A DNA stretch of 64,000 nt, from positions 2,118 to 66,117 of the forward strand of contig JBEKAS010000001.1 in NCBI GenBank assembly GCA_050015795.1, in the 5' to 3' direction. The position numbers and the translations under genes are program-made. The notes under the pieces are model-generated. The model did not search any database, had not been told where the DNA came from, and was given only the letters and a program-made list of their open reading frames with translations. Origin of the DNA: Terracidiphilus sp. (lineage in GTDB: Bacteria; Acidobacteriota; Terriglobia; Terriglobales; Acidobacteriaceae). Positions 28,804 through 54,198 of the stretch are shown here, piece by piece (position 1 is the stretch's first letter; each line of letters begins with the position of its first letter).

Positions 28804-28890
28804 GCCGAAGTGGCGGAATTGGCAGACGCGCGTGGTTCAGGTCCACGTACTCGCAAGGGTGTGGGGGTTCGAGTCCCTTCTTCGGCACCA
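28804..28890 (+). tRNA. tRNA-Leu(CAG)
   Basis: Acceptor stem GCCGAAG/CTTCGGC, D-loop GGAATTGGCAGAC, anticodon stem CGTGG-ttCAGgt-CCACG, long variable arm, GTTCGAGTCCC T-arm and encoded CCA. Confidence 0.97.
28873..28890 (+). repeat. attL: 18-bp core (tRNA 3' end)
   Basis: gtcccttcttcggcacca is identical to 54129-54146. Confidence 0.88.
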
Positions 28891-28913
28891 TAAGATTCTA
28901 AGTTGAATAGAAT

Positions 28914-28933
28914 GAGCCGCCTCCGGGTGGCTC
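28914..28933 (+). terminator. Hairpin downstream of the tRNA
   Basis: gagccgcc-tccg-ggtggctc, 24 nt after the CCA. Confidence 0.45.
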
Positions 28934-29130
28934 TAATCGTTTAGTTAGGTATTAGTTAGGCGAATCGGCATAGATATCCCGCGCGCCGCCCAATTGCCTG
29001 TTTCTCGACCGGGGATTATCGCGCGACGCCGCGCGACAGAGTGGGAAATGGAGATTGTTCTCGGGATCAAACCCCGGAAGCAGTCTCACAAAATAATCAG
29101 GCTGGAAGTTAGGCACCGCAAGGCGATCTA

Positions 29131-29286
29131 GATACCAAAAGCGGCGCAGAGACGATCATGCCCGACCCTCCTGCGGGAGTGGAAGTCTCCATCCGTTCGG
29201 GAGATGGGAAGCGCATATGGATATTTGCCAACTACGCGAGTGGACCGTGCTCCGTCACATTGCCACGTGCCATGAGAAATGTGCTT
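29131..29286 (+). pseudogene. Possible remnant of a GH42 beta-galactosidase C-terminal domain
   Basis: PAGVEVSIRSGDGKRIWIFANY...VTLPRAMRNVL resembles that domain by eye. It is cut by the IS3 remnant. Confidence 0.4.
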
Positions 29287-29293
29287 GGCTGTG

Positions 29294-29460
29294 AACTTCG
29301 ACCACCGTCTCGCCCGATTCCGCTTCGCGAAGCACCCGCAGAATCTCCTCTTCACTGTGTCCGCGCTTGCCCATTTCCTGGTCTCCTCCCCTCTTCATGG
29401 GACCACGAAAGGTCGCAATCTCTCAACTTCAAAACGGCCTAGTTTTCGGGTTTTGGGTCA
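29294..29460 (-). mobile_element. IS3-family remnant (left end plus first 27 codons of OrfA)
   Basis: End TGACCCAAAACCCGAAAACTAGG, RBS GGAGGAG, then MGKRGHSEEEILRVLREAESGETVVEV, truncated before the HTH recognition helix. Confidence 0.75.
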
Positions 29461-29555
29461 CATGGTGCGCTCTGCGCCTATCCAGAGATTTCTTTATTTT
29501 CTGCACTAGGCGAATGCCGAAGGCGGAGCAACGGCAAGAAGAGCTCATGTGGGTT

Positions 29556-33406: not shown

Positions 33407-34345
33407 ATGACCAAGAAGTTGATTACGATCATCACTCCGTGCCACAACGAAGAACTCAATGTGCGGGAGGTTCATCGGCGTGTGATGGCAATGGCGGCAC
33501 AGCTTCCCGAATATCGCTTCGAGCATCTGTTTGCTGATAATGCATCAAAGGATGGTACAGTTGCCGTACTGCGCGAGATGGCTGCCGAAGATCCCAGCGT
33601 CAAAGTGATCGTTAACGCACGCAACTTTGGCCCCGACCGCTCGGGAATGCATGCGTTTCTGCAGGCGGAGGGAGATGCGGTTGGATCGATAGCTGCCGAC
33701 CTGCAGGATCCGCCCGAGCTATTCGTGGAAATGATTCGCGAATGGGAAAAAGGCTGTCCGATCGTAGCCGCAATCAAAAACTCGAGCGATGAGAGCGGAC
33801 TGATGTACCGCGTGCGCACCGCCTACTATCGCCTGGTTTCGCGCCTCACCAATGTAGAGATCCTGGAGCACTTTACAGGCTTCGGGCTCTATGATCGTTC
33901 CGTTGTGGAGCATATCCGCAACAACTTCCGAGACCCCTATCCTTACTTCCGGGGAATGATTGCGGAGCTTGGACTGCCATGTGCCAAAGTTCTCTACAAT
34001 CAGCAGCGCCGCGAGCGCGGCAACACCAAGAACAACTTCTACTCTCTTTACGACTTTGCTATGCTGGGCATCACCAACCTTTCCAAAGTGCCTTTGCGCC
34101 TGGTGATCGGGTGCGGCTTCGTCTCCGCCACAATCAGCTTTTTGATCGGTATGATCTACCTCGCGTACAAGCTTGTATTCTGGAGCAGGTTTTCTGTCGG
34201 CGTCGCTCCAGTAGTCCTCGGCTTGTTTTTTCTTGGTTCGGTACAGTTGATTGCGCTGGGGATCATCGGTGAATACGTGGGCTCCATCCACACATTTGTG
34301 CTGAATCGCCCCCTGGTTACTGAGAAAGAACGCATCAACTTCTGA
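33407..34345 (+). CDS. GT2 polyprenol-phosphate glycosyltransferase (GtrB/ArnC-like)
   Basis: ITPCHNEE, DNASKDGT, NARNFG, AADLQDPPE, two C-terminal TMs and LGIIGEY...RP. Confidence 0.9.
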   Translation: MTKKLITIITPCHNEELNVREVHRRVMAMAAQLPEYRFEHLFADNASKDGTVAVLREMAAEDPSVKVIVNARNFGPDRSGMHAFLQAEGDAVGSIAADLQDPPELFVEMIREWEKGCPIVAAIKNSSDESGLMYRVRTAYYRLVSRLTNVEILEHFTGFGLYDRSVVEHIRNNFRDPYPYFRGMIAELGLPCAKVLYNQQRRERGNTKNNFYSLYDFAMLGITNLSKVPLRLVIGCGFVSATISFLIGMIYLAYKLVFWSRFSVGVAPVVLGLFFLGSVQLIALGIIGEYVGSIHTFVLNRPLVTEKERINF

Positions 34346-34360
34346 AGGATCTCGATCTTA

Positions 34361-34834
34361 GTGAAGCCGCATTCGCACAAGTCGGTTGGGCAATTTGTGC
34401 GATACATCGTGGTTGGGGGATTCAATACTGTTTTCGGCTATGGCGTCTTTGCGCTGCTCACCTGGTCGTTCAGGGGACTGGGTTCCTATAACTACATGTA
34501 TGCGGCAGTCTTGGCGAATGTGATCGCCATCAGCATGGCGTATCTAGGATACAAATGGTTCGTTTTTCGAACCCGCGGGAACTACCTGATTGAATGGATA
34601 CGCTGCTTTGGAGTGTACGGGAGCAGTGCGCTCATCGGTTTGGCCGGCCTGCCCATTCTGGTTCCAATTCTGCGCCACGTGCTGCACAGTCCGGAACAGG
34701 CCCCGTACATTGCAGGGGCCCTTTTAATGATGGTGACCGTGCTGTTCAGCTTCTTTGGCCACAAGAATTTTTCGTTCAGGCAGAAACAGATCGAAGAAGG
34801 TGCGAAGTCGCACTCCGAAGTGCCGCCTGCATAA
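34361..34834 (+). CDS. GtrA-family lipid-linked sugar flippase
   Basis: QFVRYIVVGGFNTVFGY, four TMs, YKWFVF and SFFGHKNFSF. Confidence 0.88.
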   Translation: MKPHSHKSVGQFVRYIVVGGFNTVFGYGVFALLTWSFRGLGSYNYMYAAVLANVIAISMAYLGYKWFVFRTRGNYLIEWIRCFGVYGSSALIGLAGLPILVPILRHVLHSPEQAPYIAGALLMMVTVLFSFFGHKNFSFRQKQIEEGAKSHSEVPPA

Positions 34835-34964: not shown

Positions 34965-37073
34965 TTGGCTAGCAACTTTACGGTTCAAGATGTGCTGGGA
35001 ATCCTCATAGTCCTTCCTTTCTTTTCGCTGGCCCTGATTGCCCCTGGCTACCTTATTGGCTTTGCTTCGAATGTCCTGGACTTCAGGCGAAGGGGCTTCT
35101 CCGAGCGATTGCTGCTGGCCATCGCGATCTCAGCCGCAGTGTCGCCTTATGCGATCAACATTTTATGCCGCTTTTTCTCTGTCGGAATTGTATCGGCGCT
35201 TTACCTTTTGCTCGGTGTCGCGTTCGTGGCCAGGCTTCTGCTTGAATGGAGACGCAGCAATTACGTGTTTCATATTGATTTACATAGGACTACCAAGCTA
35301 GCCATCTGTTTGGTTTCTGTGTGGATTGTTGTTTGCCTCATCTCGCTGCCGGACATGCAACTGGGACAGAAAATTTACTCTGCGGCGGCGACCTGGGACT
35401 ACTCGGTGCGCAGTCCCTTCATCGCTTCGGCGCTTCGCACTGGTGCTCCGCCTGCTAGTCCATTTTTCTATCCGGGACACTCCGTACCTGCGCGCTATTA
35501 CTACTACTGGAACGTATTATGCGCATTGCCGGCATTCATGTCGCGGGGCAGTGCCCGGGTTACGCTCTACGCCAGTTGCATATGGAGCGGCCTGCTTCTC
35601 GCTTCAATGATTCCCATCTATTTGAAGCATTTTCTCGAGCAATCTTCCAAATTGCGCACCGCATCTCTCGTCGGGATTGCAATACTTTCGGTGACGGGCC
35701 TGGATTTGATTCCGACCCTTGGGATTATTGCCTTTGCGCATGTACATCTGCCTGCCGATATGGAATGGTGGGATCCGTGCGAGATCGCATCGTGGCTGGA
35801 TGCATCGATCTGGGTACCTCATCATGTAGCGGCGCTGGTGGCCTGCCTGGCGGCGTATTTGTTTCTCTGGAAGGCCACATGCAAAGCAGACTCCTCGACA
35901 CGGATTTGGCTCATTGCGCTTGCTGCGCTTGGCTTCACCAGTGCCGCTGGGCTTTCCGTTTACGTCACGTTCGCCTTCGGGGGATTCATCGTCACATGGG
36001 AGGCATACCTGCTGATGCGAGGTAAGTTTTCCGCCGCGGTTATTCATGGTGCTGCAGGCACCCTGGCTCTGCTGTTCTCAGTCGGTTACATTCGAGATCT
36101 TCTCGGCCCTGGAACGAGCGCTAGCGGGTCCAGCGGAGCAAGCAGCCATTTTGTTGCGTTTGCTCTGCGGCAACTTCCCTTTGTATTCGATTTTCACAAC
36201 AACTTAGCCAATTTCAGCCTTTGGGTTCTGCTTGCCCTCCTCATTCTTTTTCTTGAACTGGGGGTATATATGTTGGTCGGCCTGATTCAGGCAAACCGCG
36301 ATTGGCGCCGATGGCGAACTCTTTCAGAGGCACAGAAGGCATTGTGGGTTATGGCCGGTTCTTCCCTCGTGATGATCATGTTTGTTCGGTCAACCGTGAT
36401 CGGAGCCAACGATCTCGCCTCGAGAGGCTCCATGGTTCTGCAGTTTGTACTTCTTCTTTGGACCACCGTCTATCTGACGAATCGCTTTTCAGCTCATCGA
36501 GAAGCACCGGCCAGGGGCCTGTCGGACCAGCAGTTGTTCGACGCGACGCTCTTCTTGCTTTTGGCAATTGGCGGTGCATCGACTCTCTATCAGTTGGGAA
36601 TGCTCCGTGTTTACACGCTTTTGAGCGATCGGTACCATTGGACAGATTTTATGCAGCTGGCAAACGGAGATGAGACCTTTGCCCTCCGCAGCGCATACGC
36701 GGAGTTAGATCGCGTGGTACCGGCAAACGCGGTGGTCCAATACAACCCCGATAGCAAACTGACCACTCCGATGCTGATCTATTCTCGCTATCAGCAGGCA
36801 GCTGGAGATCCTGGCTGCATTACGACATTCGGTGGATCAATGGCCGAGTGCGCGCCCGTGCAAGCCGGATTACAAGTTATATTCGATCCTCAGGCTGGCA
36901 GGTTTTCCTCAAAGGCCGAGGTAGATAAGATTTGCCAGGCGTTGCACATCAATGTGCTGATAGTGAACGCTCGCGATCCCATATGGAATAGAAGAGATAC
37001 TTGGGTTTGGCAAGATACTCCCATGATCCAGAATAAATTCGTTCGGGTTTACCGGTGCGGAAGCGGTCCCTGA
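34965..37073 (+). CDS. Large polytopic membrane protein, putative GT-C glycosyltransferase
   Basis: Many TMs, an early loop with WDYSVR...PPASPFF...RYYYYW, WVPHH, and a soluble C-terminal domain. Confidence 0.6.
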   Translation: MASNFTVQDVLGILIVLPFFSLALIAPGYLIGFASNVLDFRRRGFSERLLLAIAISAAVSPYAINILCRFFSVGIVSALYLLLGVAFVARLLLEWRRSNYVFHIDLHRTTKLAICLVSVWIVVCLISLPDMQLGQKIYSAAATWDYSVRSPFIASALRTGAPPASPFFYPGHSVPARYYYYWNVLCALPAFMSRGSARVTLYASCIWSGLLLASMIPIYLKHFLEQSSKLRTASLVGIAILSVTGLDLIPTLGIIAFAHVHLPADMEWWDPCEIASWLDASIWVPHHVAALVACLAAYLFLWKATCKADSSTRIWLIALAALGFTSAAGLSVYVTFAFGGFIVTWEAYLLMRGKFSAAVIHGAAGTLALLFSVGYIRDLLGPGTSASGSSGASSHFVAFALRQLPFVFDFHNNLANFSLWVLLALLILFLELGVYMLVGLIQANRDWRRWRTLSEAQKALWVMAGSSLVMIMFVRSTVIGANDLASRGSMVLQFVLLLWTTVYLTNRFSAHREAPARGLSDQQLFDATLFLLLAIGGASTLYQLGMLRVYTLLSDRYHWTDFMQLANGDETFALRSAYAELDRVVPANAVVQYNPDSKLTTPMLIYSRYQQAAGDPGCITTFGGSMAECAPVQAGLQVIFDPQAGRFSSKAEVDKICQALHINVLIVNARDPIWNRRDTWVWQDTPMIQNKFVRVYRCGSGP

Positions 37074-37210: not shown

Positions 37211-38071
37211 ATGGTCGCATGGATCGCAACGGGCTTTTGCCTGCTTTGGCTTTGGACTAGGGCCGTAGGGCTGCCCGAAGCCCTCCAGGGATGCGCGTGG
37301 GTCATTGTGCGCATGGCCTTTCCGCGCAGGCCATCCTGGGCGAAGGCGATCATGCCTCGACCGAGAATCGTGGAAGTCCGTATTCCCGGCCATCCGTACG
37401 TGTATTACGCGCGATGGCCAGCCTCCGACCTGCACATTCTGCACACCGTGGTCCGGCGTGGTGAGTACGCCCCCTTGGACCGCTATCTCGACAGCAGGCG
37501 GGAGATTCTCTTCCTCGATCTCGGAGCCAATATCGGCGCAACGTCGCGGTACTTCCTCAATCGCTATCCGGGATCGAGCGTGCTTGCCGTGGAACCCGAT
37601 TCCGCCAATATTGAAATGTTCCGCAGGAATCTAGAACCGTATCACGATCGGGTTCGTCTAATTCATGCCGCTGTGTGGAACTGCAATACCACGCTGGTGT
37701 TCGACCAGGAGTCGACGCAAACGGGAACCGAAGCGGGGATCCGTCTTCGCGAATCCGCGCCCGGTGAAGCGACCGCGGACTCTGTGCAGGGTGTCGACAT
37801 TCCGACTCTGCTCGCCGGAAATGGCGTGACGATGCACAGCCAGATCGTGGTGAAGATGGATGTGGAAGGCAGCGAGGAAGCGATTTTCCGGGGTTCGAAC
37901 CTGGAGTGGCTAGACAAGGTCAGCTGCATGGCGATCGAGCTTCACGATCACGTGAACCCGAACTGCAGCCGAAATTTCTATGCAGCGATGCAAGGCCGGA
38001 TGCGCGGGACCCCGCAAAAGATCAGTGAAACGCTCTTCGTGGGGCTCAGCGGTGGTTCAACCGCGGCATAA
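37211..38071 (+). CDS. FkbM-family methyltransferase
   Basis: LDLGANIG, VEPDSAN, HAAVW, VKMDVEGSE and IELHD. Confidence 0.88.
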   Translation: MVAWIATGFCLLWLWTRAVGLPEALQGCAWVIVRMAFPRRPSWAKAIMPRPRIVEVRIPGHPYVYYARWPASDLHILHTVVRRGEYAPLDRYLDSRREILFLDLGANIGATSRYFLNRYPGSSVLAVEPDSANIEMFRRNLEPYHDRVRLIHAAVWNCNTTLVFDQESTQTGTEAGIRLRESAPGEATADSVQGVDIPTLLAGNGVTMHSQIVVKMDVEGSEEAIFRGSNLEWLDKVSCMAIELHDHVNPNCSRNFYAAMQGRMRGTPQKISETLFVGLSGGSTAA

Positions 38072-38175: not shown

Positions 38176-40416
38176 TTACGGGCGGCTTGGGATGTTGGAG
38201 GGCTTGACATGCGGCGAGGCGGCGTCCCCGACTGAAGCAGACTTTTTTACAGGGACATTTCCTCGAAGCGGCATGGGGGCCGATTCGCTCAGTTTCTGCA
38301 GCATCCATGTGAATGGGACGGCGGCAAGCAGATCAAGTACGTAGTGCTCGCCGGTCGCAAGGATTGTGAAGGCCGTTAGCAACGTGAAGACAAATGCAGC
38401 GCGCCTAAGCCAGATTGGACCGGCGTTCAGCCACAACAGCGCGGCCCACACCAAGTGCATCGAGGGCATACAATTGCGAGCGGCGTGGGGGTCGCCTGCG
38501 TGTATTGGACCTACAGCGGGCACGAGCAAATAACAAGGCAGGGCCAAGATTGCGCCAAAGCACAAGGCCCGCGCCAATTGGCCGCGAGCTTTCCCCTTCG
38601 TGTATGCGAACACGATTGCTATCATCAGCGGAAGATTTTCATAGACACAGTTCACAGCGGCCAGCCGCAGTGAGTTTGCCAAGGTCCAATTCCGCAGCAC
38701 CGCCCCGATGCCGAAGTCGGCTTTGAGCAAGATAGCGTCGAATAGATTTGGAGTCAGGTTGGCAACGAGCTTGTTGAAAAAGTTCGCATATGCGACGGAC
38801 AAGGGCAACAAAACTGCAATCTGGAAGTTCTGTTTGGCGATCTGGCTGCCACTGGCGGCCTGAAACGCCAATACGATCGTCCCGCTGCAACCGAGCATCA
38901 TGAGCGCAGCAATCAACGGCTGAACATGGCACCAAGCGGCCAAGCAGAACAGCGGAGTTGCTACCGCAAGCAGGTGGGGGACGCGCGACTTGTTAAAGCT
39001 GAAGCAGAGGATTGCGCCGCCGAAAAACGCCGACACAGCGAAGCCAGGCCTCACTTTAAAGGTCACCACGCACGCGGCAAACGTTACATATAGCAATATG
39101 AGAACAACCCAAAGGCAGACGAGCGCGAACGATTTCAATGAAGGGCCGGAGTTTGAGTGCACCTGACGAGGTTCGGTTACGAAATTTGTTTCAGAGCCGG
39201 CGCTTAAGGATGCCGTCATGCAGCGATCGGGCGGGACGGCATACATGACGGTCTGGAATCCGTCTCCTTCGTAAGCGCGCAGATACAACCTGTGCTCCGG
39301 GAGCATCTCCCGGACGAGGAGCGGAATGCGCCAGATGTCGTTTTGCGTATGGTAAACGCAGATGGCAAGGATGGGCCGATCGCGCCGAATGACCTTTGCT
39401 GCGCCGCGTAAAGCATCGTACTCCGCCCCCTCAATATCCATTTTGATGAAGGTCAACGGAGTGTCTGCGAAGAGCTCGTCGATCGGATAACACTCTACCG
39501 GAAGTCCCTCGGCTGATATCTTCGCGCCAGTCTGGCCTGAGTGAGCAAAGTGTACAACTTCGCGCGTTGCGCCCACTGCAAAGTGAATGAGCCTTAACTT
39601 TGCTTGAAGGGGCTCAGGCAAGATGTCGCGATACGCTTTGAGCCTTGAAAATGAAACATTGTCGGCTTCAAGCGCATAGAACAGGTCAAAGCGATCTCCA
39701 CGTTTTCGGATCAGGTCTTGCGTCATCTCACCACTTGTCGCACCGCAATCCAGAAAGCGATCTTGATCCGAAAGACTGAAAATTTCCTTTGGGAAGTATG
39801 TGTTTTCGGTGGGTCGACCAGGGAGGCCGTTTAAATCTCCACGGGCGCGTAGACGAATGTTTGCGTTGAATATGGCTCGCGATTCAAACTCAGACCAAAT
39901 ATTCTCCGCCGCCAGCACACAGCTACTTTCTTGGTAGAGTTTGTGCGGCAAGTCATTCAACAGACATGGAAGAAATATCTCGGAGAACCGCCAATGAAGA
40001 AATGTATATGGGGCGACTTGGTCGCACCCATACTCGCGCAGCTGTTGATCTGTCTCACGGAACCAATGAAACTCGTTCCAGATGGTAACGAGAAAAACTG
40101 AGTCGGTGCCGTAAAGCTCTGCCGCTTTTACAGGTGGAAGGATCTCTAAGCCATCAACGTGCGCACCCCATCGTTCACGGTTGTTATCACTGAATGCAAG
40201 GGGCTTTACACCAATCCCCTGCAGGGCGCCGGCCGCCCGCCTGCCGAGATTTCCGGAGCCGAAAAGAACGACTCGGTTGTTTCGCGTGCGAAGCAGTTCT
40301 TCGAGCGCGTGTTGCTCGCGGTGCATTACCGAATCGAGAGGCTCCTGAAGTAACTCGCTAAGAGATTCTGCATTCATCCCACTGGTTCCTCTCGTAGATC
40401 CCTGCGAATGATTCAT
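38176..40416 (-). CDS. FkbM methyltransferase fused to a PAP2/AUR1-type membrane domain
   Basis: N-terminal VLFGSGNLG, DCGA, FIKMDIEGAE and ICVYH. C-terminal TMs carry MPSMH and GEHYVLD. ATGA-coupled to the ThDP gene. Confidence 0.75.
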   Translation of the reverse strand: MNHSQGSTRGTSGMNAESLSELLQEPLDSVMHREQHALEELLRTRNNRVVLFGSGNLGRRAAGALQGIGVKPLAFSDNNRERWGAHVDGLEILPPVKAAELYGTDSVFLVTIWNEFHWFRETDQQLREYGCDQVAPYTFLHWRFSEIFLPCLLNDLPHKLYQESSCVLAAENIWSEFESRAIFNANIRLRARGDLNGLPGRPTENTYFPKEIFSLSDQDRFLDCGATSGEMTQDLIRKRGDRFDLFYALEADNVSFSRLKAYRDILPEPLQAKLRLIHFAVGATREVVHFAHSGQTGAKISAEGLPVECYPIDELFADTPLTFIKMDIEGAEYDALRGAAKVIRRDRPILAICVYHTQNDIWRIPLLVREMLPEHRLYLRAYEGDGFQTVMYAVPPDRCMTASLSAGSETNFVTEPRQVHSNSGPSLKSFALVCLWVVLILLYVTFAACVVTFKVRPGFAVSAFFGGAILCFSFNKSRVPHLLAVATPLFCLAAWCHVQPLIAALMMLGCSGTIVLAFQAASGSQIAKQNFQIAVLLPLSVAYANFFNKLVANLTPNLFDAILLKADFGIGAVLRNWTLANSLRLAAVNCVYENLPLMIAIVFAYTKGKARGQLARALCFGAILALPCYLLVPAVGPIHAGDPHAARNCMPSMHLVWAALLWLNAGPIWLRRAAFVFTLLTAFTILATGEHYVLDLLAAVPFTWMLQKLSESAPMPLRGNVPVKKSASVGDAASPHVKPSNIPSRP

Positions 40417-42233: not shown

Positions 42234-42264
42234 AAGTGGAACCGCCGATGGTTTTGGCCGTGAG

Positions 42265-42792: not shown

Positions 42793-42802
42793 CGCGCCCG
42801 GT

Positions 42803-43678: not shown

Positions 43679-43913
43679 GGTTGATTCACTCCTTTTGCTG
43701 TTGCCCAGCAGCGGCCGCCAACGCAACGAACGAAGGCGGGTGTTGCGGACCCCACAGTTCTCTGGCAGCGACTGAGGCGGCGGCACAGCATCCCAGCCGG
43801 AAATTCATTTCAACATGGTTACCGAAGATACCACACTCACACGAAGGTGGAACCTAGTATGTTTCGTCGCCTGCGTGTTCCGCACCACGCAGTGCACGGT
43901 TTATGCTGATTGC

Positions 43914-44954
43914 GTGAAGCGACTGCCAACAGAAGACCTGGATCATGTCTTGGGGCAAACCCTGCCGCTGTGGGAGCAGGCGCGCGGCCGGCGCGTATTT
44001 ATTTCGGGGGGGACAGGGTTTTTTGGCGCATGGCTGCTGGAAAGCCTGGCCTATTGCAATCGCGAACTTGCGCTCGGCCTGTCCGCGACGGTTCTCAGCC
44101 GCGACCCGCGAGCATTCGCCCGGAGAATGCCGCACCTTGCCAGCGAGCCCTGCATCCAGATGCTCAAGGGAGATGTTCGCGATTTCGGCTTTCCTCGGGA
44201 GGAGTTCGAATACGTCATTCACGCCGCGGCGCCTACGTCCGGAGCCGCGGCCAGCCAACCGCTCGAATTGCTGAGTACCCTGCTTGATGGCACGAAACGC
44301 ATGCTTGCGTTTGCCAAGGCGCGGGGTGCAAAGAGATTTCTCCTGACAAGTTCCGGCGCGGTCTACGGGAGACAACCGCAGAATTTGAGCCATATCCCCG
44401 AGGATTACTTCGGAGGGCCGGAGTGGCTCGATCCGAATGCGGCCTATGCAGAGGGCAAACGGGTATCCGAACAGATGTGCTCTCTCGATGCGCGGGAATC
44501 CGGGATTGACTTCATCATTGCGCGATGCTTTGCCTTTGTTGGTCCGCACCTGCCGTTAAACCAGCACTTCGCAATCGGCAACTTTATCGCCGACGCTCTA
44601 GGCGGCAGGAACATCGCAGTCCGGTGCGACGGCACACCCATGCGCTCTTATCTCTACGGAGCCGATCTCGCGATCTGGCTATGGACGATGCTATTACATG
44701 ATTCCCTGCCGGGATCGAATCCACATGTGTTCAATGTCGGGTCTGGAGAGGCAATCAGTATTCGCGATCTGGCTCAGGTCGTGGTTGAGGAACTCGACCC
44801 CTCGCTGAAGGTGGAAGTTGCGAAGGCACCGATCGCCGGGGAGTCGCGTTTGCAGTACGTGCCGGACGTCCACGGTGCCGAAAACTGCCTGGGTCTGCGT
44901 CAGACAATCGGACTGCGGGAAGCCATCCGACGCACGGCAGCATGGCATCGCTGA
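43914..44954 (+). CDS. NAD-dependent epimerase/dehydratase/reductase (extended SDR)
   Basis: SGGTGFFG, TSSGAVYG, YAEGKR, ARCFAFVGP and RSYLYG. Start uncertain. Confidence 0.85.
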   Translation: MKRLPTEDLDHVLGQTLPLWEQARGRRVFISGGTGFFGAWLLESLAYCNRELALGLSATVLSRDPRAFARRMPHLASEPCIQMLKGDVRDFGFPREEFEYVIHAAAPTSGAAASQPLELLSTLLDGTKRMLAFAKARGAKRFLLTSSGAVYGRQPQNLSHIPEDYFGGPEWLDPNAAYAEGKRVSEQMCSLDARESGIDFIIARCFAFVGPHLPLNQHFAIGNFIADALGGRNIAVRCDGTPMRSYLYGADLAIWLWTMLLHDSLPGSNPHVFNVGSGEAISIRDLAQVVVEELDPSLKVEVAKAPIAGESRLQYVPDVHGAENCLGLRQTIGLREAIRRTAAWHR

Positions 44955-44964
44955 ACGTGCGCTC

Positions 44965-46317
44965 CTACCCAACCGGGACGCGGTTTGCGAACCGATGGAG
45001 ATTTGTGTTCGATGCAAAGCCGGTCATCACTTCTGCGACAAAATCGAGCATCGGTTTGGTCAGTCCCGGATACACGCCGATCCAGAACACGTTGTTCATC
45101 ACGAAATCGGAATTCGGCAAGGGGCCGGCGACACGAACCTCGCAGCTTTCGTAAGCTGGTTGCCGGAGGAGATTGCCGCCGAAGAGCAGTCTCGTGGCGA
45201 TCTTCTTCGCTTCAAGAGCGCGGATGATGTCTTCCCGCGTAAACGGTGCATCCTCGCGAACTCCGATCGGGAAGCCAAACCACGCGGGATCCGAGCCCGG
45301 CGTAGCCTCGGGCAGCATCAGGCAGTCCTTCATCGGTTTGAGCGCAGCCGACAAGTAGCGGAAGTTCTCCTTGCGGCATTCGATAAAGATGGGCAGCTTT
45401 TCGATCTGGGAGAGTCCTAGCGCCGCCTGCATGTCGGTGGCCTTCAAGTTGTATCCGATGTGCGAGTAGGTGTATTTGTGGTCGTACCCGCAAGGCAGTC
45501 TGCCCAGCTGCCAATCGAACCGCTTGCCGCAGGTATTGTCTTTACCGGGTTCGCACCAGCAGTCACGGCCCCAGTCGCGGAACGACTCGATCAGAACCTG
45601 CAGATCGGGCCGCTGGGTGAGCACCGCGCCGCCCTCGCCCATGGTGATGTGGTGAGCGGGATAAAAGCTGACAGTTGCGATGTCGCCAAAAGTGCCTACA
45701 TGGCGTCCCTTCCACGTGGATCCGAGCGCATCGCAGCAATCCTCAATCAGCCACAGGTGGTGTTTCTTTACAAAGTCCGTCACGGCGTCGAGGTCAAAGA
45801 CATTCCCCAACGTGTGCGCGATCATGACAGCTTTGGTCTTTTCGCTGCGGGCAGCTTCGAGTTGGCTCACATCGATCTCGTAAGTCGGCACCGTAACATC
45901 CACGCAAACCGGTACAAGTCGATTCTGAATGATCGGATTGACTGTCGTAGGAAATCCCGCGGCGACAGTAATCACTTCGTCGCCTGGCTTGAGCCGTCGG
46001 TCACCCAGCTTTGGCGAGGTGAGCGCACTGATGGCGAGGAGGTTGGCGGATGATCCGGAGTTGACGAGCGACGCGCAGCGGACTCCGACAAAACGCGCGA
46101 GCCTTCGCTCAAACTCTTCGGCAAAGCGCCCCGTCGTAAACCAGCAATCCAGTGCCGCATCAACCACAGAACTCAAATCGCTGCCGTCAATCACCTTGCC
46201 CGACACCGGCACAGGCGATTCGCCGGGTTTGAACTCGGCTGCTGGAAAGGCTTCAGCAAGATACTCGGTGCATAGATCGAGGATTTGCCGCCGAAGATGT
46301 GTTGCTTTATTCGTCAT
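44965..46317 (-). CDS. rfbH: CDP-4-keto-6-deoxy-D-glucose 3-dehydrase (E1, DdhC)
   Basis: [22 protein letters not shown] (His replaces the PLP Lys), RDWGRDCWC...NTC Fe-S motif and YDHKY. Confidence 0.92.
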
Positions 46318-46455
46318 CGACAATTAGTAACCTCAGCATACACACAATCAGAATCCGGTGGTGTACGCTATTGGCAAGCGAACACGATCTACAAACGGAT
46401 CCCGCGGTGAATTTGCCGCGGCGAACGTTAGCCCAAAGGATGCTAAGAAACTGGA

Positions 46456-47226
46456 ATGAAAGCAGTTATTCTGGCTGGCGGGCAGGGAACACGGCTGAGT
46501 GAGGAAACCAGCACGCGTCCCAAGCCTATGGTTGAGATCGGCGGCCGACCGATTCTGTGGCACATCCTCAAGATCTATTCCCAGCACGGCATCAACGACT
46601 TCGTCATCTGTTGTGGCTACAAGGGATATCTGATCAAAGAGTACTTCGCTAATTATTTTCTGCACATGTCCGACGTAACCTTCGACCTGCGGGGAAACCA
46701 CATGCAGGTGCATCAGAGCGTTGCGGAGCCTTGGCATATCACCCTTGTGGACACAGGAGACAACGCCGGGACCGGCGGACGGCTGCGAAAGGTTGCAGCG
46801 TACGTGGAGGGGGAGCGCGACTTCTGCATGACCTATGGGGACGGAGTCAGCGATCTGAATATCTCCGCATCGATCGATTTTCACAGAAGTCACGGTAAAT
46901 TGGTGACGGTAACGGCAGTTCAGCCCACGGCGCGCTTCGGGGGCTTGAGCTTCGTTGGAACAACCATCAGCGCATTCCGGGAAAAGCCCGAGGGGGAGGG
47001 CGGATGGATCAATGGCGGTTTTTTTGTCCTTTCGCCGGAGGTCATGAGCGAAATTCCCGACGAAAGCTCGATGTTTGAGCAAGAGCTCATGCAGAAGCTG
47101 TCGGCGAGGAATCAGGTACAGGCCTTTTTTCATCATGGGTTCTGGCAGCCAATGGATACGCTGCGAGACAAGCAAAGGCTTGAAGAACTGTGGACCTCCG
47201 GGAGGGCGCCTTGGAAGACGTGGTAG
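46456..47226 (+). CDS. rfbF: Glucose-1-phosphate cytidylyltransferase
   Basis: LAGGQGTRLSEET..RPKPMVEIG, GYKGYLIKEYF, TYGDG, WINGGFF and FWQPMDTLRD. Confidence 0.95.
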   Translation: MKAVILAGGQGTRLSEETSTRPKPMVEIGGRPILWHILKIYSQHGINDFVICCGYKGYLIKEYFANYFLHMSDVTFDLRGNHMQVHQSVAEPWHITLVDTGDNAGTGGRLRKVAAYVEGERDFCMTYGDGVSDLNISASIDFHRSHGKLVTVTAVQPTARFGGLSFVGTTISAFREKPEGEGGWINGGFFVLSPEVMSEIPDESSMFEQELMQKLSARNQVQAFFHHGFWQPMDTLRDKQRLEELWTSGRAPWKTW

Positions 47227-48290
47227 ACCAATGGCGGGGTCGACGTGTTTTCCTGACTGGTCACACGGGCTTTAAGGGCGGCTGGCTCGCACTCTGGCTT
47301 GCGCGCCGGGGAGCTCAGATAAGGGGATATGCGCTCGACCCGCCAACGGAACCCAATCTATTCACGGTCGCTTCCGTGGCTGCCGTTCTCGATGACATTC
47401 GCGGCGATATTCGGGACTACGCCAAGCTGGAATCCTCGATGACGGAGTTTCGTCCGGAGGTGGTTTTTCATCTTGCCGCGCAGCCGATCCTGCGGCGCTC
47501 GTATGCGGATCCGCTGGGCACATATTCGACCAACGTCATGGGCACTGCTCATGTGTTGGAGGCCGTTCGAAAGACTTCGAGTGTACGCGCGGTGGTGTGC
47601 GTCACTTCAGATAAGTGCTACCAGAATCAGGAATGGGTCTGGCCTTATCGCGAAACCGACGCACTTGGGGGATTTGACCCGTACTCCTCCAGCAAAGCAT
47701 GCACCGAAATCGTGTGCTCGGCCTACCGCAATTCCTTCTTCCCTGTGAACCGTCTGTATGAGCACCATGTCGCCTTGGCCACAGCGCGTGCCGGAAATGT
47801 GGTTGGGGGTGGAGACTGGTCGGAGGACCGCCTGGTTCCGGACCTGATCCGCGGATTTCAGGCGGGCCAGCCCGTGCTGATCAGGCATCCAAAGGCAGTT
47901 CGGCCATGGCAGCACGTCCTGGAACCCCTCAGCGGATACATGCTGCTGGCGGAGAAACTCCTCGATGCGCCTTCACAGTATTGCTCCTCGTTCAACTTCG
48001 GCCCGGGCCAAAAGGATGCGTGGCCGGTTGAGCGCATCGCGACAAAACTTGCGGAAATGTGGGGCGAGGGAGCCGGCTGGATACGCGATTCCGTTCCAGG
48101 CGTGCACGAGCACCACTCTCTGACGCTGGACACCAGCAAGGCCCGACGGCAACTTGGCTGGCAGCAGCGTCTGGGGATCGAAGCGAATTTGGAATGGACC
48201 ATGAAGTGGTACCGCAACTGGCAACAGGGCGCTGATATGAATCAGGCGACCTCGGCGCAAATCGCCAGATTTGAGCAACTCGCTCACTGA
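47220..48290 (+). CDS. rfbG: CDP-glucose 4,6-dehydratase
   Basis: TGHTGFKGGWL, HLAAQP, VTSDKCY, DPYSSSKA, RAGNVVGGGDW and RPWQHVLEPL. Confidence 0.95.
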   Translation: MVDQWRGRRVFLTGHTGFKGGWLALWLARRGAQIRGYALDPPTEPNLFTVASVAAVLDDIRGDIRDYAKLESSMTEFRPEVVFHLAAQPILRRSYADPLGTYSTNVMGTAHVLEAVRKTSSVRAVVCVTSDKCYQNQEWVWPYRETDALGGFDPYSSSKACTEIVCSAYRNSFFPVNRLYEHHVALATARAGNVVGGGDWSEDRLVPDLIRGFQAGQPVLIRHPKAVRPWQHVLEPLSGYMLLAEKLLDAPSQYCSSFNFGPGQKDAWPVERIATKLAEMWGEGAGWIRDSVPGVHEHHSLTLDTSKARRQLGWQQRLGIEANLEWTMKWYRNWQQGADMNQATSAQIARFEQLAH

Positions 48291-48395: not shown

Positions 48396-50144
48396 ATGAC
48401 GTCGTCTTCCGATGCCACCAGTCCGACGCTACTAATCCTGGAGTTCAGCCTGACAGCGTTCATGTTCGTGATTTCTTTCGGCTGGCCGGGAATCGGGCAA
48501 AATTTTTTCCGGCGAATGGAACGTTGGTTTGGAAAGCTGGCGCGAAGAAAATGGCTCGCGGTTATTTCTGTCGCCCTAAGCGTACTGCTGCTGCGCCTGG
48601 CCATCCTTCCTCTATTTCCGGTTCCGCTCCCGTTTTGTTCCGACGATTTCAGTTTTCTGTTAGCCGGTGATACTTTTGGCCACGGCAGACTGACCAATTT
48701 GACGCCTGCCATGTGGACCCATTTCGAGACTATCCACGTCACTATGAAACCGACGTATCAATCGATGTACTTCCCAGGGCAGGGGCTGATTCTTGCCGCC
48801 AGCAAGGTCGTCTTTGGTAATTCCTGGACTGGCCTGTTGATCGTGAGCGCGCTGATGTGCGCGGCGCTTTGCTGGATGCTGCAGGCGTGGCTTCCGGCCA
48901 GTTGGGCTTTGCTCGGCGGGATGATTGCCGTTCTGCGACTGGGGGTATTCAGTTACTGGACGAACACTTATCACGCCGGGGGTTCACTCGCGGCGCTGGG
49001 CGGAGCGCTGATTTTGGGCGCCCTGCCGCGACTGATAAGAACGACAAGGCTTCGCTATGCAATGCTGATGGGCATTGGCGTTGCGATATTGGTTCTTACG
49101 CGACCATACGAAGGCATACTGCTTTGCCTGCCGGTTGGGGTTGTGCTGGGCAACTGGATTTGGAAGGGAAAAAACCGGCCGGGCGTTGCTTCACTGACGG
49201 GCCTGGCCGCGGCGACGCTGGCGTTTGGTATTGCTGCTGTGGCTTGGATGGGCTACTACGACTATCGCGCCTTCGGTAATCCGCTGACTGCGCCGTACAC
49301 CATCGATCGCAATACTTACGCAATTGCCCCGTATTATGTGTGGCAGCAACCGCGGCCGGAGCCTACGTACAGATATGCTGAGATGCGGGCTTTCTATCAT
49401 GAAGGCGAATTGAGTTTCTACAACCACATCCATTCCGTGAAGGGGTTTGTGCCTTACACCCTGGAGAAAGTCGGATTTGTAATTCTCTTCTACGCTGGTT
49501 TTGCGCTGTTTCCTCCGTTGATTATGGTCCGCCGCATCTTTCTGGATCGGCGCATCCGCTTCCTTGTTGTGTGCGTGCTTGTGCTGGCAGGCGGGATGGT
49601 CATCGAGATCTTTCTTCTGCCGCACTATGTGGCGCCTTTCACGGCGGCTTTTTATGCCATCGGTTTGCAGGCTATGCGGCACATGCGGTTTTGGAAGCCG
49701 GAGGGGAAGCCGATGGGTTTGGCTTTGCTGCGGCTCACGATTGTGGTCTGTGTGTTGATGGCCGGAATACGGGTGGTTGCATCGCCTTTGCATTTTGGAC
49801 CGAACGAATTCCCACCGAGCGACTGGAACGAATCCTGGTTCGGCCCGGAGCATTTTGGAACAGAACGAGCGCAAATCGAAGCCCGGCTCAGCCAGCTTCC
49901 TGGGGGACAATTGGCGATCGTCCGCTACAGCCCTGACCACAACCCAGGGAACGAATGGGTTTACAACCGTGCTGACATCGATGGTTCCAAAGTCGTATGG
50001 GCACGGGATGCAGATGCTGCCGATAATTTAGAGTTGATCCATTACTACCAAAACCGGAAGGTCTGGCTGGTTGAGCCGGACCTGACACCTGCAAGAGTTT
50101 CGCCGTATGCAATATCGGAAAGGGCCGCCCATCCCACTCCGTGA
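48396..50144 (+). CDS. Polytopic membrane protein, putative GT-C glycosyltransferase
   Basis: First loop DDFSFLLAGDTF.HGRL...HFE...YQSMYFPGQ, then many TMs and a soluble C-terminal domain. Confidence 0.6.
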   Translation: MTSSSDATSPTLLILEFSLTAFMFVISFGWPGIGQNFFRRMERWFGKLARRKWLAVISVALSVLLLRLAILPLFPVPLPFCSDDFSFLLAGDTFGHGRLTNLTPAMWTHFETIHVTMKPTYQSMYFPGQGLILAASKVVFGNSWTGLLIVSALMCAALCWMLQAWLPASWALLGGMIAVLRLGVFSYWTNTYHAGGSLAALGGALILGALPRLIRTTRLRYAMLMGIGVAILVLTRPYEGILLCLPVGVVLGNWIWKGKNRPGVASLTGLAAATLAFGIAAVAWMGYYDYRAFGNPLTAPYTIDRNTYAIAPYYVWQQPRPEPTYRYAEMRAFYHEGELSFYNHIHSVKGFVPYTLEKVGFVILFYAGFALFPPLIMVRRIFLDRRIRFLVVCVLVLAGGMVIEIFLLPHYVAPFTAAFYAIGLQAMRHMRFWKPEGKPMGLALLRLTIVVCVLMAGIRVVASPLHFGPNEFPPSDWNESWFGPEHFGTERAQIEARLSQLPGGQLAIVRYSPDHNPGNEWVYNRADIDGSKVVWARDADAADNLELIHYYQNRKVWLVEPDLTPARVSPYAISERAAHPTP

Positions 50145-51681
50145 GCCGTCCACGCAAGCAGAATCTGCTCGCCCACGGCGATTTGCGTGGGTTCTCGAAG
50201 GGGTGCCCGACTCGACGCGCTCGCGTTGGCCGGAATGGGGCACGCTGTTTCTCTACGTGGCGCTGGTTGCCCTCGCAATTCCCTATCATGAACCGTGGGT
50301 TGACGAAGCCCAGGCGTGGCAGTTAGCGAGAAGTCTTTCTCTCACATCTCTATTCAAGACTTACATTCGTTACGAAGGTTCCCCGGGCCTTTGGCATTTC
50401 GTGCTGTGGATGATGACTCGCATCCATATCAGCTACGCAGGCGTGCACTGGATTTGCGGAGCGATTGCCACTGCCGCGGTGTGGCTTCTTCTTTTCAGAT
50501 CGCCCTTTTCCCGTTACCTGAAACTCTCGCTGCCGTTCACTTACTTTCTTTTATTTCAGTACGCGATTGTGGCGCGGAACTATGTACTCGCGCCATTACT
50601 GTTGTTTCTCGCCGCAATGGCATGGAAGAAAAGTCCAGTCAGGCTGGCCCTGGCTCTGGGGTTACTGGCAAATGTATCGCTCCACGCCGCGGTTATCTCT
50701 GGCGGACTCGCCGCCGTTTATGCCATCGAGCAATTTCGCAACCGAGAGAACAAATCTCTCAACCACCCGCGAAAACTCTTGATTGGTGCGTTGCTCCTTC
50801 TGGTCTTCTATGCGTTCGCGATCTGGACAGCATGGCCGCCCCGCGATCTTATCCTTTCCTCGGTCCGCGGGCAGTCCGGTATTTACCTTCTGCGAGGGGT
50901 CTTTTCGCTGGTGTGGCCGACGTGCCAACCGTGGGTCGTATCCATACCGTTCTGGACCGCAATAATATTGTGGCTCCACGCGCGCCACAAGCTCTATTTC
51001 CTTTTGCCGGTTCTGCTTTTTGCCGCCTTTTCCGGTGCAGTGTCAGTCGCCTGGTGGCATGCCGGACTCGTGATCCCACTTTTGATCTGCCTGCTTTGGA
51101 TTACTTGGCACGCGCCTGGAACAGTCGCCCGCGAGATTGAGATGGCTGGCCGCATCGCATTGGTGATCATGATTGCGACGCAGATTCTCTGGTCAGGTTA
51201 TGCGCTCTTCTACGACCACTACTATCCATACTCCCCCGATCCTGCAGCTGCGAAGTTCTTAAGCCCATATGTCAGGGAAGGCGCAACCATTGCGGTGACG
51301 TATATCAGTGGTCCCAACGATAAGCGCGTGCGCGCTTATCCCGCAGTGGGAATCTTGCCCTATTTCGACCATAATATTTATGCAAATACTCCTTATCCAT
51401 TCTGGTGGTGGAGCGATCAGGACCCATCTGAGGATCGGTTCAACGCCTTGTTGCCGTCTCACCCTCGCATCGTGATCGTTGAAGAAACACATAGCAATCC
51501 AGTAGTACATATGAATCTGGACAAGCCCAAGTACGTATTGTTAGTTAAGGATGGCTACAGGTTTGTGACCAGTTTCTGCGGATCCCAACCGTGGCAATTG
51601 GAACTCGGAGAAACCCTCTGCCACGTCGTCTTCGAGTACTCAGGACAGTCCGGCGCTTCGGGTATGCAGGCGCAAAGATAG
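50107..51681 (+). CDS. Polytopic membrane protein, putative GT-C glycosyltransferase
   Basis: HEPWVDEAQAWQLAR...YEGSPGLWH after the first TM (DE diacid typical of GT-C), QYAIVARNY and about ten TMs. Confidence 0.62.
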   Translation: MQYRKGPPIPLREPSTQAESARPRRFAWVLEGVPDSTRSRWPEWGTLFLYVALVALAIPYHEPWVDEAQAWQLARSLSLTSLFKTYIRYEGSPGLWHFVLWMMTRIHISYAGVHWICGAIATAAVWLLLFRSPFSRYLKLSLPFTYFLLFQYAIVARNYVLAPLLLFLAAMAWKKSPVRLALALGLLANVSLHAAVISGGLAAVYAIEQFRNRENKSLNHPRKLLIGALLLLVFYAFAIWTAWPPRDLILSSVRGQSGIYLLRGVFSLVWPTCQPWVVSIPFWTAIILWLHARHKLYFLLPVLLFAAFSGAVSVAWWHAGLVIPLLICLLWITWHAPGTVAREIEMAGRIALVIMIATQILWSGYALFYDHYYPYSPDPAAAKFLSPYVREGATIAVTYISGPNDKRVRAYPAVGILPYFDHNIYANTPYPFWWWSDQDPSEDRFNALLPSHPRIVIVEETHSNPVVHMNLDKPKYVLLVKDGYRFVTSFCGSQPWQLELGETLCHVVFEYSGQSGASGMQAQR

Positions 51682-52045: not shown

Positions 52046-52094
52046 ATGGGGTTGCCCCCTTAACTGTTTGTCTCAGCCAAGGGGGCAACCCCAT
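52046..52094. repeat. Perfect 16-bp inverted repeat with a 17-nt loop
   Basis: atggggttgccccctt-N17-aagggggcaaccccat. Confidence 0.8.
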
Positions 52095-52454: not shown

Positions 52455-52640
52455 ATGCACGACGGGCTTCTTACCTTGTACGTGAAGTTCCAAACTCTGG
52501 CGAGCCGCGAAGAAGGTCAGGATCTGGTCGAGTATGCGTTGCTCTGCTGTCTAATTGCCCTCGCCGTGATCACGGGCGTTAACCAAGTTACGACAGCGGT
52601 GACGACGGTCTTCAGCAATATCAGCACTTCGCTTGCGTAA
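52455..52640 (+). CDS. flp: Flp-family type IVb pilin
   Basis: REEG|QDLVEYALL Flp motif (E+5, Y+6), hydrophobic helix, 61 aa, and AGGAGG RBS. Confidence 0.9.
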   Translation: MHDGLLTLYVKFQTLASREEGQDLVEYALLCCLIALAVITGVNQVTTAVTTVFSNISTSLA

Positions 52641-52770
52641 TCAAGGAATCGCGAGGAACTAATCCACTGACGTGTTTCGTCGCGGTACGTTTCCAGTAAT
52701 CGGTTCCTATTCCCGTTGGTCTCGGCTCTGCGTGTTCACACCTACCGGGGGCTCGTTTAGAGGTGCTGCT

Positions 52771-52953
52771 ATGAGCGACCGCGAACGCGACTACATGGAA
52801 TTGCTGGCCCATCTGGAAAAGGCGCGGCTGGCTATCGGCACAGCCAATCCTCGTTTTTCTTACTACGAGCGCATGATCCGGCAAGCCATCTTTGACGACG
52901 ACGCACTTGCCGAATTGCAGGAGCGCATTCGACGCGAAGGAGGTCTCTGGTGA
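52771..52953 (+). CDS. Small hypothetical protein (60 aa)
   Basis: GAGGTG RBS and a helical, charged sequence MSDRERDYMELLAHLEKARLAIG. Confidence 0.5.
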   Translation: MSDRERDYMELLAHLEKARLAIGTANPRFSYYERMIRQAIFDDDALAELQERIRREGGLW

Positions 52954-53061
52954 TCGACCAATTCCGCTTTTGCTTGACATATTCCGGCTTCATATCAAGC
53001 AATTAAGTGTTGCCGGTCAAGTGGTAGCCTTGGTGTCGCTTTTTCGGTGTGAGCTTTTTAG

Positions 53062-53529
53062 ATGAGTATGCGTCAAGCAGCAAAATGGTGGTCGCAATAC
53101 ATGGGCGTTGTTCGCGATGGGCAACACCGGCTTGATGCTGTGTTTCAGGCGATGCTGCATTCCAATGACCTTGTCGGTTGTGGAAGAGACATATTGGACA
53201 AACGCTACGGTCATGTGCAGCGTTGGCTGATGAAGGATGGCTCAGGGCTGTCGCTACCTATGCTTGGTCACCCGGTTGAGCAGTTGGTATCCCAAAGCGT
53301 TGGCGACCTGAAAAAGCCAGCGTTCAGGCTGCTGTCTGAGGATGAAGCCGAAGTCCTCAAGGCTGAAATCGTTGCGAGGAATGAACTGGCTGGAGGGGTT
53401 ATCCGCCACGTTTGCGCTGAGACGACTATCGGGGAACCGAATGTGTCCCATGATTTGGAACTCAACAACGACGACAAGGAATGGTTGCACCGGATAGGCG
53501 TAGCCTTGGAGGTCACCGACATCGCATGA
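53062..53529 (+). CDS. Hypothetical protein (155 aa)
   Basis: Uninterrupted ORF with protein-like composition and no recognisable motif. Confidence 0.5.
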   Translation: MSMRQAAKWWSQYMGVVRDGQHRLDAVFQAMLHSNDLVGCGRDILDKRYGHVQRWLMKDGSGLSLPMLGHPVEQLVSQSVGDLKKPAFRLLSEDEAEVLKAEIVARNELAGGVIRHVCAETTIGEPNVSHDLELNNDDKEWLHRIGVALEVTDIA

Positions 53530-53764
53530 CTGAGGATGGCATTTGCTCCACATTCTCTTCTGTCTGTTCCGGCACCTTCCGAAACACCCGATTGTAAATC
53601 TCGTGCGCCAAATCGACCGACTCTTCTATCGCATGGCTGGTCGGAACGACTCTGACGTTGGCCTGCTTCTCTCGCGCCAGCCGGATTCCGGCGATGAGGC
53701 ACGCGCCAAGGTAGACCATCCCTCGGTTGATTCGGGGCAGGTGAGCGTCCGGGTCGAACATCAC
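53513..53764 (-). CDS. Small hypothetical protein (83 aa)
   Basis: ATGA-coupled to the upstream zinc-ribbon gene; contains VYLGACLIAGIRLAR. Confidence 0.55.
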   Translation of the reverse strand: MMFDPDAHLPRINRGMVYLGACLIAGIRLAREKQANVRVVPTSHAIEESVDLAHEIYNRVFRKVPEQTEENVEQMPSSVMRCR

Positions 53765-53976
53765 CGGCCTCCGTCCCGTTGCTGGCGGGTGACGAGTCCG
53801 TCAGGTCGCCCGAGGAAGACCTCGCTCGGTCTGTACTGCCGTCGCTCTCCACATAGCGGACACTCTACGACGACCGACTGAAACGGGAATTCCTCCCGAC
53901 CAGAGGGCACATCGCGGCGGCACTGCTTGCAGGTGACCACGAAGGTCTTGCGATTCCAGTCGGGGCTTCCTAGCAT
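53761..53976 (-). CDS. Small zinc-ribbon protein (71 aa)
   Basis: VVTCKQCRR...VECPLCGERRQY: two CxxC pairs. Confidence 0.6.
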   Translation of the reverse strand: MLGSPDWNRKTFVVTCKQCRRDVPSGREEFPFQSVVVECPLCGERRQYRPSEVFLGRPDGLVTRQQRDGGR

Positions 53977-54128
53977 TTCCTAACAGTTTTCCTGAAATCG
54001 AAGGGCTCAAAATTGTCATCGACAATGGAAAATCCATGATTGTCTCAGAAATCCCTTCGTTTTCGCTTGCATTTTTGGGGGCAATATTTACAGTGGTCTT
54101 GGAAAAACTTCAGGCACTCCGAAGGCGC

Positions 54129-54146
54129 GTCCCTTCTTCGGCACCA
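54129..54146 (+). repeat. attR: duplicated 3' end of tRNA-Leu
   Basis: gtcccttcttcggcacca is identical to 28873-28890. Confidence 0.88.
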
Positions 54147-54198
54147 AATCTTACCAAAATTCTTCTGTTGATTCGTCAATTGAACAAGGGTGCGCTTA

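Follow-up and report, generated by a model that had tools for sequence, protein, structure and literature searches.

A 25-kb interval downstream of tRNA-Leu(CAG)

We analysed 64,000 bp of the genome of a Terracidiphilus sp. (Acidobacteriaceae; GenBank assembly GCA_050015795.1, contig JBEKAS010000001.1, positions 2,118 to 66,117 of the forward strand; hereafter the window, numbered from its first base), in which a tRNA-Leu(CAG) gene, the sole tRNA that ARAGORN found there, is separated by about 25 kb from a second copy of its own 3′-end. The first-pass annotation, made from the letters alone, had taken this interval for an island bounded by perfect att repeats, which was either a former prophage or integrative element that had lost its mobility genes or a satellite excised in trans. 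The interval is an ordinary genomic-island relic, neither an intact nor a hidden mobile element, and we favour, with moderate confidence, an account in which it is a fixed, immobile replacement island in a tRNA-Leu(CAG) plasticity zone and carries an orphan attR site. Congeneric genomes, contigs and loci are cited by our working numbers (G, C and L, respectively).

The repeated sequence, GTCCCTTCTTCGGCACCA, is the 3′-terminal 18 nt of the tRNA and spans the T-arm and the acceptor 3′ strand up to the CCA. It has two exact occurrences in the window, 18 of 18 nt being identical, and the repeat grows to 21 nt if one mismatch is allowed. Shuffled sequences gave an expectation of 0.01 chance matches, even allowing up to two mismatches, so that the recurrence reported in the first-pass annotation stands, as does its observation that the interval is AT-richer. 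GC content is 0.560 in the interval, compared with 0.616 and 0.614 in the left and right flanks and 0.610 in the genome as a whole (the entire assembly, 4.03 Mb in 321 contigs), and this is the lowest value among 72 genome windows of 25 kb; moreover, the tetranucleotide distance of the interval is the largest among 41 windows. The further claim that dispersed repeats flank the interval and are lacking inside it holds for the one repetitive extragenic palindromic (REP)-like family tested, whose copies at 11903-12160, 28040-28089 and 54194-54245 all lie outside. This REP-like element is ∼50 bp long (CCCACCC...AAAAAGCGCG.AAAAG.ATGGGGCACGGATGC) and has matches on 48 contigs of the genome; one copy begins 47 bp past core copy 2. 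Across the genus, the 18-mer is present in duplicate in about 13 of 151 genomes.

No match to the tyrosine recombinase, resolvase or AlpA families (PF00589, PF00239 and PF05930) was found on the contig at E ≤ 1, and tblastn searches of the window with 10 integrases of the same genome, the integrase of G123 and one AlpA protein returned only noise. Hence, the reported absence of a tyrosine or serine recombinase was confirmed, with no remnant detectable. Open reading frames (ORFs) of at least 80 aa gave no Pfam match to phage structural, packaging or replication domains or to satellite hallmark domains, and no conjugation domains were seen among the interval gene products; nothing phage-like is present. 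The sole integrase and AlpA pair in the assembly belongs to an island at tRNA-Ser(GGA) (contig C127, 3523-5691), which has a classical start composed of the tRNA, a 411-aa tyrosine integrase and an AlpA gene 52% identical to that of G167.

Most of the interval is occupied by surface-glycan and pilin genes (Table 1). Counterparts of the glycan cluster, 71-80% identical, are present at loci without a tRNA in G024, G077, G123, G004, G006 and other congeners, where the order GtrB-GtrA-...-RfbG-...-Flp is partly kept, and in several congeners the 582-aa gene also adjoins the Flp gene. The glycan and Flp cargo therefore appears to be of within-genus origin. In addition, a 94% identical copy of the 155-aa ORF and the 3′-end of the 82-aa gene is located at a different locus of G017 (C10, 338824-339468), where it adjoins low-GC DNA (0.48-0.54); this identity exceeds the 91% of the flanks that G017 shares with the window. 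Two insertion sequence (IS) relics lie within the interval and mark its stepwise assembly as a mosaic. The first, which we take to be of the IS3 family from its likeness to IS3 OrfA N-termini and without hidden Markov model (HMM) confirmation, is 63 bp longer in a conspecific variant (variant C, see below). An ORF at 29158-29442 with a weak Pfam match to the GH42 C-terminal domain was considered as a truncated beta-galactosidase and rejected, as this piece is the opposite-strand IS3 orfA relic.

Table 1. Features of the tRNA-Leu(CAG) interval and its borders, in window coordinates
Feature	Position	Strand	Basis and remarks
tRNA-Leu(CAG)	28804-28890	+	ARAGORN; last 18 nt (28873-28890) are core copy 1
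Native tRNA-downstream DNA (B′)	28891-29045 (right limit approximate)	+	Hairpin GAGCCGCCTCCGGGTGGCTC at 28914-28933; TTAGTTAGG at 28941-28949 and 28952-28960
IS3-family relic (presumed family)	29297-29412	-	Terminal inverted repeat TGACCCAAAACCC and first ∼27 orfA codons (MGKRGHSEEEILRVLREAESGETVVEV); alignment with G020, G077 and G011 copies; translation
Fused MFS/spermidine-synthase-like membrane protein, 744 aa	29556-31790	-	PF01564, NF037959
IS1595-family transposase fragment, 70 aa	31916-32128	-	PF12762, E=4.9e-6; in 1.6 kb of non-coding junk between modules
GtrB-like GT2	33407-34345	+	PF00535
GtrA flippase	34361-34834	+	PF04138
702-aa protein	34965-37073	+	No family match
FkbM methyltransferase	37211-38071	+	PF05050
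FkbM-PAP2 fusion	38176-40416	-	PF05050, PF14378
CDP-sugar (CDP-glucose) pathway: thiamine diphosphate (ThDP) enzyme, HAD phosphatase, NeuB-like protein, epimerase, RfbH, RfbF, RfbG	40413-48290		Pfam, NCBIfam
582-aa protein without family	48396-50144	+	Gene call
524-aa protein without family	50107-51681	+	Gene call
Flp pilin	52455-52640	+	PF04964
60-aa ORF	52771-52953	+	Gene call
155-aa ORF without family	53062-53529	+	Window 53006-53650 is 94% identical to a copy on G017 contig C10
Putative element-end module	53513-53976	-	71-aa CxxC...CxxC zinc ribbon (53761-53976) and 82-aa protein (53513-53761), overlapping at TGATG
P arm of attR site	53967-54128	+	Starts with TTCCTAGCATTTCCTAAC; conserved in G123-E2, G167 and Ga0326728
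Core copy 2	54129-54146	+	Exact 18-mer; pattern search
Spacer (47 bp, 54147-54193) and REP-like dispersed repeat (54194-54245)	54147-54245	+	G017 homology resumes within or just after the REP
LacI-family regulator	54290-55294	-	Pfam; first flank gene common with G017, 91% nucleotide identity

The two junctions of the interval

We compared the DNA beside each core copy with related genomes. Directly after the tRNA, the window continues with TAAGATTCTAAGTTGAATAGAAT and then the hairpin GAGCCGCCTCCGGGTGGCTC, and this arrangement of core end, 23 nt and hairpin was found in 9 of the 151 genus genomes. The hairpin directly follows the genome's single core copy in G024, G135, G072, G111 and G165; in G024 this core is the tRNA itself, normal-GC genes come next and no second core is present within 17 kb. 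In G123 it follows the third, outermost core copy, with housekeeping genes beyond, and in G017 it follows a degenerate core (GTTCCTTCTTCGGCACTA, two mismatches) 880 bp past the tRNA, with resemblance to the window also beyond the hairpin; in G138 it probably also lies beyond inserted DNA. Because it follows the only core in five genomes and the outermost or degenerate core in G123 and G017, the hairpin is native downstream sequence (B′) that inserted elements have pushed away from the tRNA. The P′ arms which follow the first two G123 copies (islands E1 and E2) and the tRNA of variant A are mutually similar, and no such arm was found in the window, where the hairpin stands in the place at which the P′ arm of an attL site would be expected. 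The left copy of the 18-mer is just the tRNA, and its junction is attB-like and has no element arm, so that the repeats cannot be described as perfect att repeats bounding an element. The 880 bp between the tRNA-Leu and the degenerate core in G017 (C5; L021, 15445-16336) are themselves a relic, and the sequence directly after the tRNA in that genome resembles the P′ arm of island E2. A direct repeat near 28943-28970 had been proposed as an arm-type site: a pair of TTAGTTAGG copies does exist, but it is not arm-type, because the DNA in which it is located is native and the P′ arms of related elements contain nothing that corresponds to it.

The right junction is of another kind. To the left of core copy 2, ∼650 bp that include both small genes of the element-end module match the right end of E2, which is the corresponding stretch beside the third G123 copy, at 73-78% identity. 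A scan of public genomes and metagenomes with the last 10 nt of the P arm plus the core as query yielded 2 genome and 3 metagenome records and added two further independent contexts, G167 and the metagenome contig Ga0326728; the same junction had no match in a scan of viral contigs. All four contexts share a conserved stretch of 162 bp, which runs from TTCCTAGCATTTCCTAAC to the core, and differ in the DNA that flanks it. Moreover, recombination genes occur in two of these genomes, a tyrosine integrase in island E1 of G123 and in G167 a 64-aa AlpA-family gene (PF05930, E=1.3e-21) that ends ∼280 bp from the core. The 162-bp stretch thus looks, on sequence grounds, like the P arm of an attP or attR site, and the right copy of the 18-mer, which it directly precedes, is a genuine attR. 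With native B′ on the left and a P arm on the right, the two copies are therefore not an attL/attR pair; the left-hand order, tRNA-core-B′, is that of an attB-like site, and the right-hand P-core is an orphan attR.

The zinc-ribbon and 82-aa gene pair shows codon-periodic conservation across 8 copies from 5 congeners and has >1,800 homologue clusters, of which the best 120 are 81-100% identical at the protein level and all annotated as hypothetical; a Pfam search matched neither protein to a family. Congeners have several copies of the module (a 71-aa zinc ribbon and a protein of ∼70-82 aa whose genes overlap at TGATG), and island E2 has one at each end, in inverted orientation (G123:C8, 22167-22552 and 34489-34874). 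On Ga0326728_10113424 (L080, ∼1332-1530), the P arm and core are followed ∼150 bp on by a second core with one mismatch (GTTCCTTCTTCGGCACCA), and this double core is another stacked att relic. In G167 (C5; L052, L056 and L058, near 880 kb and 2.33 Mb), 1.45 Mb separate the tRNA-Leu from the AlpA-P arm-core site, which lies on the opposite strand, and units of an identical-length IS91 transposase (458 aa) and a 302-aa integrase are located near both, which suggests that a large inversion between IS91 copies split an integrated element. Two integrase candidates in G167 were discarded: a 375-aa ORF by the tRNA proved not to be an integrase, and the 302-aa integrase belongs to the IS91 unit.

Strain variation at tRNA-Leu(CAG)

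The architecture of the TonB receptors agrees with an origin of the genome in uncultured Acidobacteriaceae. Both flanks of the interval are shared, at 91% identity, with G017, the closest reference genome. Left-flank identity ends at the last base of the tRNA and right-flank identity resumes at ∼54232; between them, G017 has 5.2 kb with a DUF5107/TPR gene and a small ORF, and no remnants of this DUF5107 gene or its 152-aa neighbour were found in the window. A precise empty site was not found in close relatives, G017 having other DNA there and variant A a chaperone-usher cluster. In other congeners unrelated genes follow the tRNA (HisS, GlmS, a FUSC protein and an ammonium transporter), and the tRNA is therefore a synteny breakpoint.

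G123 has three core copies on one contig, at 4.7, 21.8 and 35.1 kb, and an intact tRNA-Leu(CAG) was not found within 4.7 kb upstream of the first. Between them are two tandem islands of 17 and 13 kb (G123:C8, 3500-37000; L031 and L032), the first (E1) with a tyrosine integrase and AIPR and FRG genes and the second (E2) with a restriction-type (REase-ARP) nuclease, a metallophosphoesterase and a small resolvase, and from this gene content both are probably defence islands. Core-bounded intervals without an integrase are present not only in E2 but also in G113, G003 and G059, which indicates that decay at the tRNA-Leu site is common in the genus.

Conspecific metagenome contigs (L069-L078) contain the exact OsmC protein of the left flank in three contexts. 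In variant A, on the 67-kb contig Ga0181533_1000290, the tRNA is followed by an element-type P′ arm, a chaperone-usher (SCPU/Usher/PapD) pilus cluster, an ABC protein and then EngB, and there is neither LacI/GH2 nor the hairpin. Variant B is the island of the window. Variant C, on the 143-kb contig Ga0643842_0000006, is 99% identical to the window at its left end and differs in the genes past GtrA, which encode a 224-aa methyltransferase, an 813-aa membrane protein and a 297-aa methyltransferase; thus GtrA and GtrB are present in both B and C, and the 702-aa protein, which has no family match, is replaced. Because three alternative contents are found behind the same OsmC, the site is a plasticity zone with the tRNA and EngB as its limits. 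The right junction does not vary within variant B: 9 metagenome samples yielded 10 contigs with the exact 82-aa protein, all of them in the order GH2-LacI-(zinc ribbon)-82 aa-155 aa-Flp-524/582 aa-RfbG and with identical right junctions, the integrated form being the only one seen in these assembled contigs. In the left flank, the alanyl-tRNA synthetase (AlaS, 19452-22436) is 994 aa long in the window and 928, 944 and 997 aa long on conspecific contigs (L069-L073), which fits length variation of an in-frame octamer microsatellite.

History of the interval and its alternatives

We propose the following history. Its starting points are direct observations at the site: an exact 18-mer repeat with native DNA beyond its left copy and a conserved P arm before its right copy, no recombinase, two IS relics and contents that vary among strains. 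An integrative element of the Int/AlpA type, from a family that would target the last 18 nt of tRNA-Leu(CAG) in the genus and whose members share the P arm, may once have entered at or beside the tRNA-Leu site. The right end of the interval would be the surviving end of this element after its decay, with the zinc-ribbon gene pair, the 162-bp P arm and the 18-nt core as survivors, and the tRNA-proximal junction has the native attB-like layout of tRNA, core and native terminator. The attL side and the integrase would have been lost, plausibly by an IS-linked deletion that also removed the DUF5107 gene kept in G017; the two IS relics are marks of later rearrangement. What lies between is a mosaic of within-genus modules for surface structures, namely a CDP-sugar pathway and sets of genes for Gtr-type glycan modification and for a Flp pilin, and the block would now be vertically inherited, changing through homologous recombination only and unable to excise. 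The earlier view of a former integrative element without mobility genes thus survives in part: a decayed element left its attR and P arm, with the integrase gone, but the interval is not that element as a whole, bounded by attL and attR, because the tRNA junction is attB-like, two IS relics lie inside and the cargo has counterparts at loci without a tRNA.

Several points weigh against this history. We infer the sequence of events rather than reconstruct it, because no simple series of steps converts tRNA-core-P′...P-core-B′ into the observed tRNA-core-B′...P-core. The 47 bp right of core copy 2 match no identified source; the G017 assembly is only 72% complete; past the hairpin, G000 and G017 are weakly similar, as judged by eye; in principle, relics of an element arm in several genomes could account for the hairpin; and assemblies could miss rare excision.

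Among the alternatives, we consider it unlikely that the interval is a classical element at the tRNA, bounded by attL and attR, which lost its integrase and could be excised by an integrase acting in trans. The exact direct repeat, the conserved P arm and the low GC would all suit such an element, as would the integrase-free core-bounded intervals of G113, G003, G059 and G123-E2; moreover, supposing the hairpin to be an element arm, the P arm-core-hairpin of G123 might represent a tandem junction of attP-like type. But the hairpin directly follows the only core in five genomes, with normal-GC genes next in G024, and comes after the degenerate core in G017, and the known P′ arms of the family differ from it and are absent from the window. 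Excision in trans is also unlikely, because the window has no P′ arm, the G123 integrase has no relative in the source genome by tblastn and the sole integrase and AlpA pair belongs to the tRNA-Ser(GGA) island. Together with the lack of any alternative junction among the 10 contigs, these points leave the idea of a satellite excised in trans unsupported.

Similarly improbable, in our estimate, is that an imprecisely excised donor circle, carrying an element right end, attR, native tRNA-downstream DNA and adjacent genes, integrated through its core into the tRNA. This would yield exactly the observed order B-core-B′...P-core, as the donor B′ would adjoin the tRNA and the P arm-core would come to lie at the far end. 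The attR junction of G123 (P arm-core-hairpin) has the required structure, with 36 of 36 bases identical after the spacer, and the closest relatives, G017 and G020, differ directly after the tRNA. However, the hairpin followed by the left-end genes of the island was found in none of ∼45 genomes searched, no second hairpin follows core copy 2, an unusual attR x attB reaction would be needed, and in G017 a relic separates the same hairpin type from the tRNA, as would be expected if B′ had been vertically inherited. Integration at a secondary site next to lacI, followed by deletion, would be an alternative route to the same arrangement. Least probable of all is that the second 18-mer matches by chance or without relevance, in an old chromosomal polysaccharide locus of typical low GC. 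The apparent within-genus origin of the cargo, its partial synteny elsewhere and the commonly AT-richer composition of surface-glycan loci would suit this reading, but it is contradicted by the low chance expectation and by the adjoining 162 bp, which have homologues among the att-site arms of three other genomes or contigs; moreover, no more than 47-85 bp separate the second 18-mer from the breakpoint with G017.

Among known kinds of element, the interval comes closest to the cis-mobilizable element (CIME), a decayed element that has kept both attL and attR (PMC5704250). The interval resembles a CIME in that it lacks integration and transfer genes, has a well-preserved attR and is located at a tRNA 3′-end used by related elements, with tandem accretion at the same site in G123. 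It falls outside the definition because attL is missing; it also differs in that native DNA follows the tRNA, in that its cargo resembles resident genes of the genus and in having no partner element.

Islands with a P4-type integrase and AlpA, such as CP4-57 and pathogenicity islands of Enterobacteria, are likewise linked to tRNAs. They share with the present locus the target at the tRNA 3′-end and, in G167, an AlpA gene adjoining the conserved P arm, whereas the window has neither integrase nor AlpA and the intact island of this type in the genome is the one at tRNA-Ser(GGA). In replacement islands and plasticity zones, strains exchange loci for O-antigen, capsule or pilin glycosylation by recombining within the conserved flanking DNA. 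Here too, the same flanks enclose alternative conspecific cassettes (the chaperone-usher pilus and two Gtr variants) or DUF5107, and GC is lower and the cargo consists of surface-glycan and pilin genes; the differences are that one boundary is a relic of site-specific recombination and that IS relics lie inside. The gtrABC serotype-conversion cassettes are carried by temperate phages of Shigella and Salmonella. As in these, gtrA and gtrB are conserved, the next gene varies between strains (variant B versus C) and the cassette adjoins a tRNA att site, but the window has no phage genes or integrase, its cassette is part of a far larger sugar-biosynthesis cluster and its 702-aa protein matches no GtrC family.

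There is a very slight chance that the integrase of a visiting family element could still use the tRNA site, of attB type, together with the well-preserved attR-type site 25 kb from it. If so, the whole glycan and pilin cassette could be looped out and passed on as an integrase-less cassette for surface-antigen switching, and the widespread zinc-ribbon and 82-aa gene pair could take part in this switching. The data on this tRNA-Leu island give no sign of a new mechanism.

The present case shows that an exact repeat of a tRNA end is insufficient to call an island att-bounded, and that the sequence beside each copy decides; here, element-derived DNA is present on only one side of the repeat pair. 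These comparisons document tRNA-Leu(CAG) as a recurrent integration hot spot and a plasticity zone in uncultured Acidobacteriaceae. The site is occupied by tandem islands, probably for defence, in one congener and by cassettes of surface-glycan, Flp-pilin or chaperone-usher genes among conspecific strains, which bears on strain-level surface variation in this abundant soil and peat group.

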